Shown here one piece after another: positions 9,324-15,576 of a stretch of DNA of 64,000 nucleotides (position 1 is its first letter; each line of letters begins with the position of its first letter). The notes under the pieces are model-generated. The model made no database searches. It had not been told where the DNA came from and saw only the letters and a list, made by a program, of their open reading frames with translations. The DNA is taken from the IMG/VR virus record IMGVR_UViG_3300030098_001779, positions 1-64,000 of that record; one strand, written 5' to 3'. Made by a program: the position numbers and the translations under genes. The stretch is from a virus.

Positions 9324-9806
9324 ATGATAATGGCAAATAAGCTAAAGATCAGAAAAGCTGATGATTGGCACTATAATCTAGGATTTGAGGTAAATTCTAT
9401 GAATACTGTACAGAAATCAGACAATAAGTACATAAAAGTAAGCGATTTGACTAATGGTACGATATTTAGAGGTAGAACAATTCCTAGTAGGATTGTATGC
9501 TTTTATAATATAAAACCACTAGAAATATCGTGGAAATATGATACTGCTAAAAAGCAAGAAGAATGTAGTGGGAGAAGTGATTATTGTTATCTAGTTAGAG
9601 ATGATTATTACTGTCCTAGTGGGTTCTATCTATGCTTACCTCATAATAATATAGTGGATTGGAGAGTATCAGGATTGGATCATTACTTTCTTTCCCCACA
9701 GGAATTTGAGGAAGATCACAAGATGACAATGCAAGAATATGGTGTTATTCAAAAAGAAGAACACATGAATTCTTACAATGCAGTTAAATCAAAACTAGGG
9801 TATTGA
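9324..9806 (+). CDS. Hypothetical protein
   Basis: 160 aa. Confidence 0.75.
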   Translation: MIMANKLKIRKADDWHYNLGFEVNSMNTVQKSDNKYIKVSDLTNGTIFRGRTIPSRIVCFYNIKPLEISWKYDTAKKQEECSGRSDYCYLVRDDYYCPSGFYLCLPHNNIVDWRVSGLDHYFLSPQEFEEDHKMTMQEYGVIQKEEHMNSYNAVKSKLGY

Positions 9807-9997: not shown

Positions 9998-10002
9998 TCC
10001 TG

Positions 10003-10045
10003 AATAGAGGGTTAGGTTTTATGGTTTTTTCCCTAACTCTCTATT
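10003..10045 (+). terminator. Hairpin at the convergence of the + and - early regions
   Basis: 14-bp stem AATAGAGGGTTAGG/CCTAACTCTCTATT. Confidence 0.6.
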
Positions 10046-10133
10046 ATATCATAAACCACCACCCCCTGTCAAGTACCCCTATATACGATATATCAATAAC
10101 TCCTATTAAATATATTGCTATATAAAAAATTTT

Positions 10134-10245
10134 AGGGAAGTAAGGAGGGGTATATATGGAAGGGAAGGAGAGGAAGAAGGGGTTAGGATACAGGAAGGAA
10201 GGGAGAGGAAAGGCGAGGAAAGGGAAAGGAAGGAAGGGGAGAAAG
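10134..10245 (+). repeat. Polypurine GGAAGG-like tract
   Basis: ~110 nt, mostly G/A, ending at a half site of the motif; a second tract at 10907-10954. Confidence 0.8.
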
Positions 10246-10274
10246 CCGCATAACTCCCACCCCTAGAGGACTGC

Positions 10275-10784
10275 TTAAAAACAGTCCCCTTTGGTGTCAT
10301 CAAAGATATTATTTTCTCCACTTATGTATCTCTGGTAATTCTTGTATGCTTGTTGTAATCCCCATTCATACTCCATACCCATTCCAAACGATCTTTTAAA
10401 CCAGATGTGGTCAAAGTCGTATACATCATCAACAACAATTTCACCAACTGTTGAAAACCATTGGGCAAGGTGTGGAGAAATGGCAAAATGTTGCATTACA
10501 TCACCTTGTTTCCACTCAATCAGCTCCTGTTTATATTCATCTTCTAATTGGTCTAGAGTCAAGACAGGATCAAAATTGTTCCTGAAGTCTTCCATGTCTT
10601 CGGAGGTGATAGCGTTTTGAGTAGCAATCCAAAGTTTTTCATGGGGTTCTTGTGTGTCATCTTGATACCAAATATCCATAACTTGATTTACAAGGTGATA
10701 AACATTATTATCAATCCATTTTTTAAAGTCTTGATCTTGTGCTAAATCTGTTTTTTGTTGTGTCATTTTAATGCCTTTCTGCAT
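10275..10784 (-). CDS. Hypothetical cassette protein (likely start 10766)
   Basis: Own promoter 10808-10837 (TTGACA-N18-TATTAT). Confidence 0.75.
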   Translation of the reverse strand: MQKGIKMTQQKTDLAQDQDFKKWIDNNVYHLVNQVMDIWYQDDTQEPHEKLWIATQNAITSEDMEDFRNNFDPVLTLDQLEDEYKQELIEWKQGDVMQHFAISPHLAQWFSTVGEIVVDDVYDFDHIWFKRSFGMGMEYEWGLQQAYKNYQRYISGENNIFDDTKGDCF

Positions 10785-10979
10785 TGGTTTATTTATTAAC
10801 TAATCTCATAATATCACATTTAACAGTTCTGTGTCAATATGTCAATATAGCGATATATCTATAACTCCACCTACTATCATTATATCATATATGGAAGGGG
10901 TGTGTCAAGAGGGAAGCAAGGGAAAAGGAGAGTAAAGGAAGGAAGGACAAGGGGTGCCATAACTCCCCAGAGGGGAGGA

Positions 10980-11249
10980 CTATGCCTCCCACTCTGCCTG
11001 TTCCTTTCTTGCATATTCAAGGTCATCCTCTAGAAGTTCTTCTAGTTGCTCCCATGAAATCCATCCCATGTAAACCATTTCTTGGATAAGAGCTGGTTTT
11101 AATCCATTTACTGGAACTAGATCTTCGTCATATTCTCCGATATGAGAAGTAATATCTACGAAGGGGTGATTTCCTTCAAATGAGTCAGCAAACTCAATTA
11201 GGTCGTTTATACTTATATTCAATTGTAGGTTTAAAAATTCCTTATTCAT
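10980..11249 (-). CDS. Acidic hypothetical cassette protein
   Basis: 89 aa; promoter 11292-11321. Confidence 0.75.
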   Translation of the reverse strand: MNKEFLNLQLNISINDLIEFADSFEGNHPFVDITSHIGEYDEDLVPVNGLKPALIQEMVYMGWISWEQLEELLEDDLEYARKEQAEWEA

Positions 11250-11407
11250 TTTTAATTCCCTTTTTGTTTTTTTATTTATTTCTTATATATAATAGTAGCA
11301 TATTTTTCCTAAATGTGTCAACAACTGATATATCGTATAACTCCAATAAAATGCGGGGGGACAGGGGAAAAATTGAAAAACCCTGTCCATGTGTCCCCTA
11401 GTTTAGT

Positions 11408-11638
11408 TTATATAGCCAATTTTCTTTGCTCTTTTTCTTCTTCCCAGATCACGCTTTCTACTGCATCTCTGAACCTTTGCTCATCAAATCGGGGATTATC
11501 TTCTCTGAAAACTTCACACATTGATTGGTATAAACTATCAGCATCAATGTAATGATATCCTTTTTCTCTAGCATCTCCCATAAATCTAATGCTTTTCTTC
11601 CACACTCCAACGAATTTTATGTAATCTTTCTTAGTCAT
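11408..11638 (-). CDS. Hypothetical cassette protein (MTKKDY...NPRFDEQRF)
   Basis: AGGAG RBS before ATG 11638; promoter 11668-11697. Confidence 0.75.
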   Translation of the reverse strand: MTKKDYIKFVGVWKKSIRFMGDAREKGYHYIDADSLYQSMCEVFREDNPRFDEQRFRDAVESVIWEEEKEQRKLAI

Positions 11639-11744
11639 TTTTCTCCTTTGTTTTTCCTTATATACATATAATAACATATTTCTTATAGGTAATGCAATAG
11701 TACCGCTACCATGATATATCACATAACTCCCAAAAAATTTAGTT

Positions 11745-12058
11745 CAACAGGCGTGGCAAGGGTGTCAGATGAATGAGAACTCACTTTCAAACTTAGCCTT
11801 ACGATTTGAGGTGTAATCGTGATACATCAGGCTCAACACTGGCTTTCCTTATACCATTCCTAGGATATGGTGGAAGCATCAGGTGATACATCTGGCTCAA
11901 CGTCATTGACCACAGGGATCTGCAAGATACTCTATCTCTATTCTTTTTCTGAACTCGCATTAGAAGTCCATCATGATTAAGTACAACTAATAATTTTCGT
12001 AACCCTTAAAGTTTCTGTTTAGGTTGCGATCCTAAGAGCCTACTAACCACGCCTACTA
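11745..12058 (-). ncRNA. Candidate structured ncRNA (~310 nt) occupying a cassette slot
   Basis: Promoter 12156-12185 with no ORF of 60 aa or more downstream; 12-bp terminal stem; two 19-nt direct repeats. Confidence 0.55.
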
Positions 12059-12214
12059 TATTGTTAAACACAAGATTGATGATCGGTTGTTATAGATCAT
12101 TTCTGTCCACATTCCCTACTTCGTTGTATTTCTACTTCCTCAACCTTGTAATATAAGTATACCATATTTAATAAACCCATGTCAATACTGATATATCATA
12201 ACTCCCCACCCCTA

Positions 12215-12244
12215 TTGACTCAACTATTTTAAAAATGCTATAAT
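12215..12244 (+). promoter_or_regulatory. sigma70-type promoter of the inverted cassette
   Basis: TTGACT-N18-TATAAT. Confidence 0.75.
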
Positions 12245-12282
12245 ATTAGAGTAAATAAAAAACAAGTAGATAAGGACTACTA

Positions 12283-12531
12283 ATGAATTCAATAGAACCA
12301 AATGATATCAAGAAGGGTGATATCGGATACTTAAAAAATGGGTGGAAGTTTGAAATGATGGATAACAAGAAGGGTAATATCAGAATGGCAATGGTACATG
12401 GCGACTTCCCTGAAATGGGTAGCATCTATACCCATGATATAGCCTTCATTGAAAAAGATGGCGATGATGTTCCTGTTAATGCTTCACGCTATGAGAAGCA
12501 AACAACTATGATTAGAAATTTAGGTTTCTAG
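12283..12531 (+). CDS. Hypothetical protein (inverted cassette)
   Basis: 82 aa, AAGGA RBS. Confidence 0.75.
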   Translation: MNSIEPNDIKKGDIGYLKNGWKFEMMDNKKGNIRMAMVHGDFPEMGSIYTHDIAFIEKDGDDVPVNASRYEKQTTMIRNLGF

Positions 12532-12621
12532 TCTATGGAATATATATTACTCATAGGAATTTTTCTATGGTGGCTCTCTTTATAAGAGCCACTATGGAGT
12601 TATGTGATATATCAGCACACC

Positions 12622-12843
12622 CTAGTTAATGGGTATATAGAAATCCATATTTCCAGAGTTCTCCTCACCTCCCACAATACTGATGAAATCCCTTTGCGTG
12701 GGATCCTCAACATCAAAAGGGTGTGGCTCTACCCAGTAGCAATAACCACAGATAACCACTTCATCACCCTGTACATCAGCCACCAATCCCCAAGATGATA
12801 TTTGATTGATTATTAAGTTGCAGAAGTTACATTCTTTATCCAT
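12622..12843 (-). CDS. Small Zn-ribbon-like protein
   Basis: CNFC...CGYC; AGGAG RBS. Confidence 0.7.
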   Translation of the reverse strand: MDKECNFCNLIINQISSWGLVADVQGDEVVICGYCYWVEPHPFDVEDPTQRDFISIVGGEENSGNMDFYIPIN

Positions 12844-12991
12844 TTTTTTAAATCTCCTTAAATCGTTTTGCCTGTATTTTTTACAGAGCTCAATTTAATA
12901 ATACCAAAGTTAAAATAAATGTAAAGAGTGGCGGCACCCTGATATATCATATAACTCCCCAATATATATCATTTCAACTGGGGATTAGATT

Positions 12992-13240
12992 TTACCAATC
13001 TATAGTATTAATACCGAATTCAGCATATCCTTTTTCAATATTTTCATCAGGATCATCTTCATGATCTAAACTTATTGGCAGTACAACTGCAGAGTCTGGT
13101 ATTGGTTGTCCATAATCATCAGTAACATCAGACGCATTTAAACAATCTAAAAGATTTTTTTCATCTATATCTTCTTTAGACCATAACGCTAAATTCTGTA
13201 ATTCATGTTCAACTTGTGCATTTTTTATTTCATTTAACAT
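12992..13240 (-). CDS. Acidic hypothetical cassette protein
   Basis: AAGGAGGTG RBS; promoter 13265-13292. Confidence 0.75.
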   Translation of the reverse strand: MLNEIKNAQVEHELQNLALWSKEDIDEKNLLDCLNASDVTDDYGQPIPDSAVVLPISLDHEDDPDENIEKGYAEFGINTIDW

Positions 13241-13338
13241 TTTTTTATCACCTCCTTTAATATAAGTATATCATAGGTAGGTAATATGTCAAAGACTGAT
13301 ATATCATATAACTCCCCGAAAAAATCGGGGGGTAGTGG

Positions 13339-13560
13339 CTAGTCCATGTATTGATTAGTTACATGCCCTAAAGGACTATCAGTAGTTAATCCTTGAACAC
13401 CTTCATCAAATGCGATGAAAACTTTTTTCCAAAGTTGCCCACTATCAGAGTAGAAATATTCATCTCCCTCTGCTTTAATGCCATTTTCTATTATGGCTTG
13501 TGCTAAATCTCTGTATCCTTCATTGATTGCCATTTCTTTATTTATTTCTGCGTAAGACAT
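13339..13560 (-). CDS. Hypothetical cassette protein
   Basis: AGGAG RBS. Confidence 0.75.
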   Translation of the reverse strand: MSYAEINKEMAINEGYRDLAQAIIENGIKAEGDEYFYSDSGQLWKKVFIAFDEGVQGLTTDSPLGHVTNQYMD

Positions 13561-13755
13561 TTTTTTCTCCTATTGGTTGTTTATTTAACTTACATTTATA
13601 AGTATACCAGAATATAAAAATTATACAATAGCAATTTTATACCGATATATCATATAACTCCAAAAAAATGGGGTGGTGGCTGAAATAATCCCGATCCTAT
13701 GTTTCTGATGATCGGTTATAGTGTCTTCCACTTTTTCAGCCATTACCCTTTTATA

Positions 13756-13884
13756 TTATTGTTGAGGTATATTTTCTTCTTCTAAAAGTTTTCTCCACTG
13801 CTCTCTGATTTTTGCTTGTTCAGGTGTCAAGATTTTTTCATCTGTTCCCTCGTTTAGCAAATCTTCAAAACTTTTCTCTTTCAT
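13756..13884 (-). CDS. Small protein (42 aa, not in ORF track)
   Basis: MKEKSFEDLL...; ATGA overlap with the upstream ORF. Confidence 0.55.
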   Translation of the reverse strand: MKEKSFEDLLNEGTDEKILTPEQAKIREQWRKLLEEENIPQQ

Positions 13885-14012
13885 TTTTTATTCCTTTTTA
13901 ACTCGTTTTTATATTTTTGTATTGCCTCTTTTTTAGAGTAATAGTAATAAATTCGTCTTCCTATATCTCCGAAAATTACTAACGCTCCTTCTCTGTTTTT
14001 TTCTATAATCAT
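13881..14012 (-). CDS. Small protein (43 aa, not in ORF track)
   Basis: MIIEKNREGALVIFG...; AAGGA RBS. Confidence 0.6.
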   Translation of the reverse strand: MIIEKNREGALVIFGDIGRRIYYYYSKKEAIQKYKNELKRNKK

Positions 14013-14022
14013 TTTTTCCTTT

Positions 14023-14181
14023 CTATCTTCTTGGGTTCTGTCGTTCCAATGTCTGTTTTACTATTAATCTTTTAATTTGGTTTTTAGTTAATCCTTTTGG
14101 CTTTGCTTTTGAACCTTTCACAACTGTGATACATTCTCCATTCTTGCCACTTGGTTTTACTTCTAATTTTATTCTAGCCAT
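14023..14181 (-). CDS. Small basic protein (52 aa, not in ORF track)
   Basis: MARIKLEVKPSG...; AAGGA RBS, promoter 14214-14243. Confidence 0.6.
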   Translation of the reverse strand: MARIKLEVKPSGKNGECITVVKGSKAKPKGLTKNQIKRLIVKQTLERQNPRR

Positions 14182-14340
14182 TTTTTTCCTTTGTTTATTT
14201 ATTTGTTAATATAATAATAGCATATTTTCTTTAGGTGTGTCAACAAGGTATGTCCACATGATATATCATATAACTCCCACTTGGGTGGTGGTGGCAGTAG
14301 AGAAAAAATGAAAAAACTCTATCTGCCCCACTCTAGTTTA

Positions 14341-14583
14341 TTAAATAGCTTGTGCTAGATTTAATACTACCACTTCGGTTCTCTTTGACATTTCAAAGTG
14401 GTGGTCGCAACATATTAAACTATCACTTATTTCCTTTGGGTTTCGTTTAAAGATATCTGTGATTGAGAATTTCTTCTTATCAGGACAATCAAACCATTGT
14501 CGCCAATATCCTTTGTCTTTGTCTATTTCATAGTGAACATTCTCATTCTGCTCACCAAACTTAAATGTACCTTTAACCTTCAT
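14341..14583 (-). CDS. Hypothetical protein
   Basis: Promoter 14618-14647. Confidence 0.7.
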   Translation of the reverse strand: MKVKGTFKFGEQNENVHYEIDKDKGYWRQWFDCPDKKKFSITDIFKRNPKEISDSLICCDHHFEMSKRTEVVVLNLAQAI

Positions 14584-14650
14584 CTTTATTCCTTTGCTAG
14601 TTTTCTTATCTACTTATATTATATCATATATAGTGGTGGCTTGTCAAGGG

Positions 14651-14851
14651 TTAATACTCATCGTCCCATGCTTTCTCAAACATCATCTCATTAACCTCAT
14701 CTAGGTTCACAAACAACTCTCTCCATAGGTTTTCAGTTTTCCTACTCTCCCAACCCTCATTCCGAGTGTCATTGAGTTCCTTCACTAAGTCAATAACCAT
14801 AGTGTCAAATATAGTTTTTCTATATTGTTTAGTTTCTTTACAGTAATTCAT
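14651..14851 (-). CDS. Hypothetical protein
   Basis: Promoter 14881-14910. Confidence 0.7.
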   Translation of the reverse strand: MNYCKETKQYRKTIFDTMVIDLVKELNDTRNEGWESRKTENLWRELFVNLDEVNEMMFEKAWDDEY

Positions 14852-15432
14852 TTTTACCCCTTATAATAGTTACTAATAACATTATATCACATTTGATATA
14901 GCCATGTCAACAATAACCCCCTATTGTGCTATTTTAGGTGCTAGTTTTAGCTAATAAAGGGGTTCTTAAAAAAAATACTAATTTTTTAAAAAATGGCTTT
15001 TTGAAGGGTGGGGGGTCTAATATTTGAAAAAACGGAAAGGGTCCCATGTACAGGGCTAATTTTTTTAAAAATAAAAATTTGTAGAAAACGGCGTTTAGCT
15101 CTATGCTAGGTTGGCGTTTTAAATAAAATGTATTATTGCAGATACTATTATAGCTAACAATACTGCTAATCCTATTCTAGTCACTATACTTGAGCTAAAT
15201 AGTAAACAACTAATTCGTTGGATGCTTTGTAACTGGGGTGGTAGTAATCATCTTCAATGTGGATTACATCTTCTAATCTATAGGATTCTGATCTTGTGAA
15301 TAATGCTTTTAAGAATTTAGTCAATTAAACCTCCTTTACTAATTCTTTCTATGTATATTATATCATATCAAGGGGTGGGATTTCAATATGTTGTATTACA
15401 TAAATGTTAACAATGTATTAAGTATAGGAGGG

Positions 15433-15462
15433 TTGACTCAGCTATCAAGGTTGTGCTATAAT
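15433..15462 (+). promoter_or_regulatory. sigma70-type promoter, divergent from one at ~15357-15386
   Basis: TTGACT-N18-TATAAT. Confidence 0.65.
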
Positions 15463-15576
15463 ATACTATATATAATATATATAATAGAAAAGGATAGTAT
15501 AGTATGATTAGAAATATATTTATTACTTTAGTAGTATATCTAACATTTATCTGGTTAGTCTTAGCAGGACTACTGA

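Follow-up and report, generated by a model that had tools for sequence, protein, structure and literature searches.

What does a strong promoter transcribe when no gene of any size lies behind it? The question is raised by a minus-strand locus (positions 12150–11745) in a 64,000-nucleotide (nt) stretch of DNA, hereafter the window, which is the first 64 kb of the 82,411-bp IMG/VR phage genome IMGVR_UViG_3300030098_001779 (G+C 33%). A first-pass annotation had read this locus as a cassette for a phage non-coding RNA (ncRNA) of about 310 nt with twin 19-nt repeats. Our analysis indicates that the locus is very probably a separate gene for a structured ncRNA: it evolves in a structure-preserving manner, contains no conserved open reading frame (ORF), possesses its own promoter and is present in metatranscriptomes. 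The ncRNA assignment is thereby sustained, but the length had to be revised. The predicted transcript measures about 418 nt (12149–11732; minus strand, as are all features below unless stated otherwise), as judged from RNA-library contigs and the span of homolog conservation, and it comprises two domains. Its predicted +1 is A12149, 7 nt past the -10 element, and its 3′ end is set in a U6 tract (11737–11732) located 4 nt past the helices that close the fold. A U-run is retained in all homologs and other cassettes of this phage end likewise; the U6 tract is probably an intrinsic termination site.

We found the whole unit by word scans in marine viral and metagenome contigs at 77–99.8% identity. 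The copy in L020 is 99.8% identical to that of the window, those in L023, L018 and L004 (the last with the same sequence as L022) are 96–97% identical, a Tara Oceans scaffold (L027) reaches 94.6%, L013 reaches 85%, and L008, L021 and L026 reach 77%. L008 is part of an 81,307-bp phage genome with a single copy of the unit. An nhmmer search across 149 loci gave no further homologs, and five conserved-block patterns, one two-gap pattern and one metagenome scan retrieved only the same clade and chance matches; the longest invariant block of the RNA, AUAGAGUAUCUUGCAGAUCCCU (11912–11936), served as a search pattern. A related-locus search using the neighbouring 1032-aa protein returned no relatives, and a blastn query of the 50,697 INPHARED phage records with the locus returned no similar DNA. 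None of the 4227 models of Rfam 15 matched anywhere in the window at the gathering threshold, and with E values allowed up to 10 the region 11300–12600 showed three chance-level matches, all outside the RNA. Since Rfam, INPHARED, nhmmer and the pattern scans give nothing else, the RNA family is, on the sequences at hand, a new one limited to one marine phage lineage without a cultured relative. With its DNA polymerase less than 28% identical to that of any listed phage, the phage could be linked neither to a cultured relative nor to a host.

The evidence for a fold comes from comparing these homologs. We tested 64 pairs in ten helices on an alignment (A3) of nine distinct rows. Standard pairs occupy 97.2% of the observed cells, compared with 34–44% for slid partners and 93.7% for column shuffles. 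Both sides have changed in 13 of the 64 pairs, compared with 0–2 for slid partners and 4.5 ± 1.6 for column shuffles (0/500 reach 13). Several points weigh against the fold. The folding energy of the single sequence is no better than that of shuffled sequences (z = -0.2 for the minus strand and +0.2 for the plus strand), and the structural evidence is therefore comparative, not thermodynamic. All available lineages belong to one phage clade and only about five are independent, which limits the covariation, and the sequences used to test the structure are those from which it was derived. In addition, about half of the large domain has no supported pairing, including its most conserved blocks and both 19-mers: no pairing survives comparison for the invariant blocks 11936–11912, the two 19-mers and 11800–11764.

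The comparative model divides the RNA into a 5′ hairpin domain whose pairing starts at +1 and a second domain of about 330 nt closed by three helices. The 5′ domain (80 nt, 12070–12149) is closed by the 10-bp helix P1, in which ACAAGGUUGA (12149–12140) pairs with UCAAUCUUGU (12079–12070). P1 is 100% paired, with two one-sided changes that both keep the pairing, and L008 carries a 24-nt insertion in the apical part of this domain. The large domain has a 7-bp outer closing helix formed by GUUUAAC (12069–12063) and GUUGAAC (11748–11742), which is paired at 7/7 positions in all seven lineage representatives and shows U.G to U-A and G-C to G.U changes. The core closing helix, AGGCGUGG (12054–12047) with CCACGCCU (11756–11749), has a compensatory G-C to A-U change in L008 and L021. 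The first-pass annotation had drawn 12 bp between the ends of the RNA; these 8 bp are retained, supported by the change in L008, but the outer four, UAGU/GUUG (three of them wobbles), were abandoned, as they fail in L008, where the 7-bp outer helix fits better. The third, long-range helix joins UAAGGGU (12008–12002) to ACCCUUG (11763–11757), with two pairs changed on both sides and 100% pairing. One continuous 22-nt strand, ACCCUUG-CCACGCCU-GUUGAAC (11742–11763), serves as the 3′ strand of all three closing helices, and because this run is unbroken, the three helices probably stack. A hairpin at 12019–12035 (UUAGG/CCUAA), with a 7-nt loop NUCGCAA in which UCGCAA is invariant, is 100% paired, and both partners have changed in three of its five pairs. 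The helix between UGAUG (11973–11969) and CGUUG (11902–11898, at the start of the first 19-mer) changes G.U to A-U and U.G to C-G in L008. The many G-U pairs make the predicted fold specific to the minus strand, in agreement with what the first-pass annotation had noted for the wobbles at the ends.

No ORF of 60 aa or more lies within 12150–11745, as originally reported. The longest ORF has 53 aa (11960–11799) and is neither preceded by a Shine-Dalgarno sequence nor conserved, being shortened to 24 aa in L027 and gone from L013 and L008, and indels of 1, 2, 5, 6, 7 and 24 nt in the homologs disrupt every reading frame. A small-protein gene or a dual-function RNA using this frame, or an 18-aa frame at 12112–12056, might nevertheless be considered, since the latter belongs to the sole frame common to all lineages, which is 18–24 codons long and ends near 12056. 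However, both the start (ATG or GTG) and the C-terminus of this frame vary, a 2-nt deletion affects it in L008, and it has no usable Shine-Dalgarno spacing. Both P1 substitutions fall on its second codon positions, where they are non-synonymous while the pairing is preserved. We regard a coding function as extremely unlikely; selection on the RNA acts on its base pairing and not on an encoded peptide.

Nine marine DNA runs each contain more than half of the words sampled from a 4.5-kb stretch, and parts of the same stretch occur in two metatranscriptome runs, both of one study. One of these RNA runs contains an exact 374-nt contig covering 11768–12139 at a depth of 40, and the other an exact 201-nt contig covering 11945–12145 at a depth of 109; the remaining phage contigs in both RNA runs have depths of 2–19. 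Several flanking stretches have zero cover in the RNA runs, yet they are spanned by a DNA run. The ends of the RNA contigs lie 4–10 nt from the predicted start and just inside the closing helices. The RNA is thus present in RNA libraries, and the contigs hint at a discrete, abundant species. Against this, the RNA evidence consists of contigs from a single study, and assembled contigs give neither strand, true ends nor true levels. The shorter contig holds only the 5′ half of the RNA, while the other is nearly full length; the 5′-half contig could represent processing to a stable 5′ fragment or an assembly break.

The RNA unit is one member of an array of self-promoted early cassettes. A minus-strand block of short early units spans 10000–15500, and each unit is opened by a GGAGTTATATGATATATCA motif and a near-consensus TG-extended sigma70-type promoter, about ten of which are found in this block. 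The motif precedes every early promoter and occurs in eight copies plus one inverted copy within 11300–14300. Motif searching placed the upstream copy of the RNA unit, GGGGAGTTATGATATATCA, at 12189–12207, and this copy holds the 10-bp palindrome TGATATATCA. The promoter itself (12185–12156) consists of TTGACA, an 18-nt spacer and a TG-extended TATACT and matches 11 of 12 consensus positions, consistent with the strong promoter of the first-pass annotation; its -10 element and TG are invariant across all homologs. Downstream of the RNA, another motif copy (11712–11730) introduces the next cassette, which has a promoter of its own and a 76-aa gene (11637–11408). A cis-acting leader or riboswitch for this gene would accord with the shared strand and with the distance of about 95 nt from the U tract to the start codon. 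However, a full motif and promoter intervene, and the RNA ends in closing helices and a U tract. The genes downstream of the RNA are different ones in L004 and L008, and the downstream cassette is missing from one DNA contig. The longer RNA contig stops at 11768, and the 76-aa gene is uncovered in both RNA runs. The leader, which we consider very unlikely, was excluded because of the intervening promoter and the variable neighbours. As the downstream gene has its own motif and promoter and the neighbours vary, the RNA unit is independent of them, and the RNA is rather likely to act in trans.

What, then, might a trans-acting RNA of this kind recognize? The two 19-mers are exactly where the first-pass annotation had placed them. 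R1, GUUGAGCCAGAUGUAUCAC (11901–11883), and R2, GUUGAGCCUGAUGUAUCAC (11837–11819), differ by one mismatch; no other copy exists in the window at up to three mismatches, and two copies appear in 0/100 shuffles. They share 19 nt of a 64-nt repeat unit, and their flanks differ. R1 hardly varies among the homologs, with an A to U change in L013 and a U to A change in L027, and R2 diverges in other lineages: it ends in GUAGCAC elsewhere, reads GAUCC in L027 and L013, and contains an extra base in L008. Within both decamers NGAUGUAUCA, variation is confined to positions 3 and 8. In L013, an identical A to U change appears at the corresponding position of each repeat, and such a concerted change fits a shared ligand or gene conversion. 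The earlier suggestion of duplicated protein-binding modules is therefore kept as a possibility, tempered by the near-identity of R2 to R1 being restricted to the window and L020, a restriction that also weakens the idea of twin identical sites.

Twin repeats in a phage RNA call to mind two kinds of mimicry, both of which had been proposed for this locus. In an RNA anti-CRISPR (Racr) or mini-array, the 19-mers would imitate a CRISPR repeat of the host and capture Cas proteins. In keeping with this, a strong promoter in a phage early region precedes two direct repeats that are 64 nt apart, and Racrs, like the RNA described here, are small phage ncRNAs highly expressed from their own promoters, a Racr being a decoy for a host defence protein (PMC10651486). 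However, the 19-mer (with K at the variable site) was found in no CRISPR array of 185,579 species, one genome each: its 31 single matches compare with about 35 expected by chance, and no matched locus had a second copy at up to four mismatches, in a collection where the phage host may not be represented. The similarity does not extend beyond the 19 nt, the 'spacer' is a conserved, covarying hairpin, and R2 drifts in relatives. Moreover, R1 starts 248 nt past the predicted +1 inside a 418-nt structured RNA, unlike a solitary repeat unit (PMC10651486); Racrs are defined by a likeness to CRISPR repeats, none of which was found here, where the repeats lie deep inside a large fold. An anti-CRISPR is accordingly most improbable. 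A type III antitoxin mimic (pseudo-ToxI-like), whose repeats would neutralise a host ToxN-type endoribonuclease, has in its favour that the twin repeats are real and that repeat-bearing phage RNAs do so elsewhere, ToxI neutralising a host protein by mimicry (PMC3475682). But a type III antitoxin consists of short repeats arrayed in tandem, which are cleaved to give pseudoknotted monomers (PMC5086642), and Tandem Repeats Finder detected no array here at a score of 30 or more. The part of the 64-nt unit outside the 19 shared nt is unique conserved structure, and there is no Rfam match; we give the antitoxin mimic hardly any weight.

Two further explanations of the repeats were weighed. The R2 decamer UGAUGUAUCA (11820–11829) is one mismatch from the motif palindrome TGATATATCA (11712–11721 and 12189–12198) and groups with these two motif palindromes. 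The repeats might thus act as DNA, as weak copies of the cassette-boundary operator bound by a phage regulator of the early promoters, all of which have the motif in front of them. In other lineages, however, no more than 7 or 8 of the 10 decamer positions agree with the palindrome, the 19-mer is otherwise unlike the motif, and R1 is nearly invariant at the RNA level, beyond the decamer too. The likeness is probably a coincidence, and an operator function is quite unlikely. The second explanation is a ligand-binding, pseudo-symmetric aptamer with two similar, repeat-lined pockets, which would soak up a small molecule, for instance a nucleotide used in immune signalling. The internal duplication about a central hairpin, the invariant blocks left unpaired in every model and the very high apparent RNA level for a unit without a downstream gene are compatible with it. 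But the RNA shows no likeness to Rfam riboswitch classes, its context gives no clue to a ligand, and R2 varies at several positions; we assign the aptamer only a small probability.

A loose likeness to the 19-mer, GTTGAGCAATGTA, was seen in a related 81-kb phage (L123:10440–10590, minus strand). It lies inside a stem-closed leader of about 110 nt, behind a TTGACT/TATAAT promoter and ahead of an ORF, and this leader is otherwise unrelated to the RNA.

The hairpin that the first-pass annotation had drawn between the repeats is real and covaries. It spans 11842–11877 and has an outer stem GCUUCC/GGAAAGC, an inner stem ACCAU/AUGGU and a 9-nt loop AUCCUAGGA. The ACCAU/AUGGU inner stem of the window is replaced by AUCAU/AUGAU in L027 and by CUGUU/AACAG in L013, so that four of its five pairs have changed with compensation. 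Three pairs of the outer stem are compensated, with UUCC/GGAA becoming UUUG/CAAA and the pair of alignment columns 327 and 360 changing from C-G to A-U. The loop is constant except in L008, where it is shortened to 8 nt (GCCUAGGA). Within it, CCUAGG (11864–11859) is self-complementary and invariant in five lineages, and UCCUAGGA is also self-complementary in most lineages. Only three 6-nt palindromes exist in the RNA, CCUAGG among them, and the unconstrained loop-loop duplex is predicted at -12.4 kcal/mol. A self-complementary 6-mer in the apical loop of a covarying stem is what a kissing loop would look like, and dimerisation of the RNA through CCUAGG is a tentative possibility. Two points limit the case for dimers: the palindrome never varies, so covariation says nothing on dimerisation, and a protein site or a tertiary contact would explain the conserved loop equally well, given that CCUG of R2 can pair with UAGG.

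Such loops have precedents. OLE, GOLLD and ROOL form homo-oligomers held by symmetric kissing loops, with palindromic loops that are conserved or covary (PMC12286853). OLE in particular uses the palindromic apical loop L9.3 of a covarying hairpin as a dimer bridge, an arrangement only proposed for the RNA described here (PMC12286853); OLE, with which the present RNA shares no sequence match, differs in being found in Bacillota, in having protein partners and its own Rfam family, and in that its palindrome covaries, whereas CCUAGG is invariant. HIV-1 and oskar RNAs dimerise through six-nt palindromic apical loops with unpaired flanking bases (PMC7357161). The HIV-1 dimerisation initiation site and the oskar 3′ untranslated region (3′UTR) loop resemble the hairpin here in having a six-nt self-complementary apical loop with unpaired flanks and A on both sides (PMC7357161); they belong to a eukaryotic virus genome and an mRNA, respectively, and have two purines where the 5′ flank here is A-U, so the resemblance is an analogy without homology. 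The phi29 pRNA is likewise a phage RNA made from an early promoter, and it self-assembles via loop-loop pairing (PMC7357161). It uses two different complementary loops, forms rings and is limited to phi29-like phages, while the RNA here has no Rfam match, and its single palindromic loop would predict dimers, not pRNA-style rings.

GOLLD and ROOL are like the RNA here in being phage-encoded, several hundred nt long and elaborately and conservedly structured, in having no known partner protein and in being expressed during infection. They are about 580 to over 800 nt long, compared with 418 nt here, and they lie adjacent to tRNA genes, whereas ARAGORN found zero tRNA or tmRNA genes in the window and in the entire 82,411-bp genome (G000). 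The present RNA matches none of the GOLLD, ROOL and OLE Rfam models, is encoded in an early-promoter cassette and has a candidate symmetric loop in CCUAGG. It is of the same general kind as the orphan ornate phage RNAs and differs from them in size, genomic setting and sequence.

Putting these observations together, we propose that the RNA may serve as a trans-acting scaffold or decoy early in infection. Two molecules would associate head to head through the palindromic loop, because CCUAGG within a 9-nt loop has the geometry of kissing-loop dimerisation. The 19-nt elements beside the hairpin would then offer two recognition sites per RNA, and four per dimer, for a protein of host or phage origin; being abundant, the RNA could titrate this protein early in infection. 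Sequestration of a protein through the 19-mers is in itself possible, if doubtful, and for the composite of an early trans-acting decoy or scaffold RNA, possibly dimeric, we see the case as evenly balanced. A more speculative version, which we think unlikely, is a counter-defence sponge that needs no dedicated protein, in which a symmetric RNA-only dimer or higher particle would self-assemble by way of the invariant palindromic loop and its 19-nt pockets or docking sites would soak up a host defence factor or signalling nucleotide. Weighing against any of these functions, no binding partner or host was identified for the RNA.

The remaining helices and candidate pairings are as follows. A hairpin GACUU/GAGUU with a 7-nt loop is supported at 11968–11952, and an alternative pairing of 11994–11985 with 11968–11959 is also compatible with the alignment. 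Another hairpin, ACGAU/AUCGU (11801–11820), shares the last 2 nt of R2; its pairs are invariant and its loop varies. GGCUC (12040–12036) could form a pseudoknot with GAGCC of R1, and both sides are invariant, hence covariation is silent on this candidate. Four other pairings were rejected, as their mismatches are uncompensated across lineages: R1 with R2, CAGAUG/UCAC of R1 with CAUCUG/GUGA, R1 with GAGUAUCUUGC, and AGCCU of R2 with AGGCU. The anticodon-loop appearance of NUCGCAA and a 16S-like AUCACCU in R1 were dropped as unsupported.

We also inspected the surroundings of the RNA. In a marine DNA run, contigs skip entire early cassettes, with joints at 10966 to 11354, 11351 to 11742 and 11641 to 13906 (window 10966–13906), and the cuts sit at or beside the GGAGTTATATGATATATCA motif. 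The cassette array is therefore polymorphic among related phages, probably through recombination at the motif and promoter. A neighbouring multi-ORF cassette ends in a structured element of about 95 nt (13770–13662), which has CUAUAAC..CCGAUCAUCA in common with the 5′ domain of the RNA and finishes with a long stem, an A and then U7. Several cassettes are closed by GCCAC..CCCC before the U tract. Nine small early proteins near the RNA and one plus-strand ORF (9324–9806) matched no Pfam family. No RVT_1 match to a reverse transcriptase, the gene that would accompany a retron- or DRT-type template RNA, was found in the 82-kb genome at E values up to 0.1. Searching the phage genome for antisense targets gave only 12–16-nt matches, at chance level.

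The only inverted cassette contains an 82-aa ORF (12283–12531, plus strand), which in L008 is on the same strand as the RNA and downstream of it. The encoded protein is predicted to be a small all-beta barrel (AF2 pLDDT 82), with weak KOW/Tudor/PWWP-like Foldseek matches (E about 0.1). This protein was considered as a dedicated partner of the RNA, as it lies near the RNA in three lineages, and was rejected: of the 28 viral contigs bearing a relative, 26 (31–63% G+C) have neither the RNA nor the motif.

To our knowledge, only a few large structured phage RNAs of unknown function have been described, and no role has been assigned to any of them. Confinement to one clade limits the general reach of the RNA described here. 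It is, at 418 nt, small enough for chemical probing, mutagenesis and cryo-EM, and both its promoter and its terminator are clean. It has early host-takeover genes instead of tRNAs as neighbours, appears abundant in ocean metatranscriptomes, and has a simple, mutable candidate dimerisation loop as well as a duplicated element. Were the RNA-only sponge to prove true, it would be a much smaller relative in kind of the GOLLD and ROOL assemblies, with a testable function. Should it be no more than a stable RNA specific to this lineage, it nevertheless represents a new RNA family that merits an Rfam entry. If it is a decoy or self-assembles, phage-host conflict in a widespread marine phage lineage would gain an early function carried out by RNA, and the RNA would provide a tractable model for why phages make ornate RNAs.

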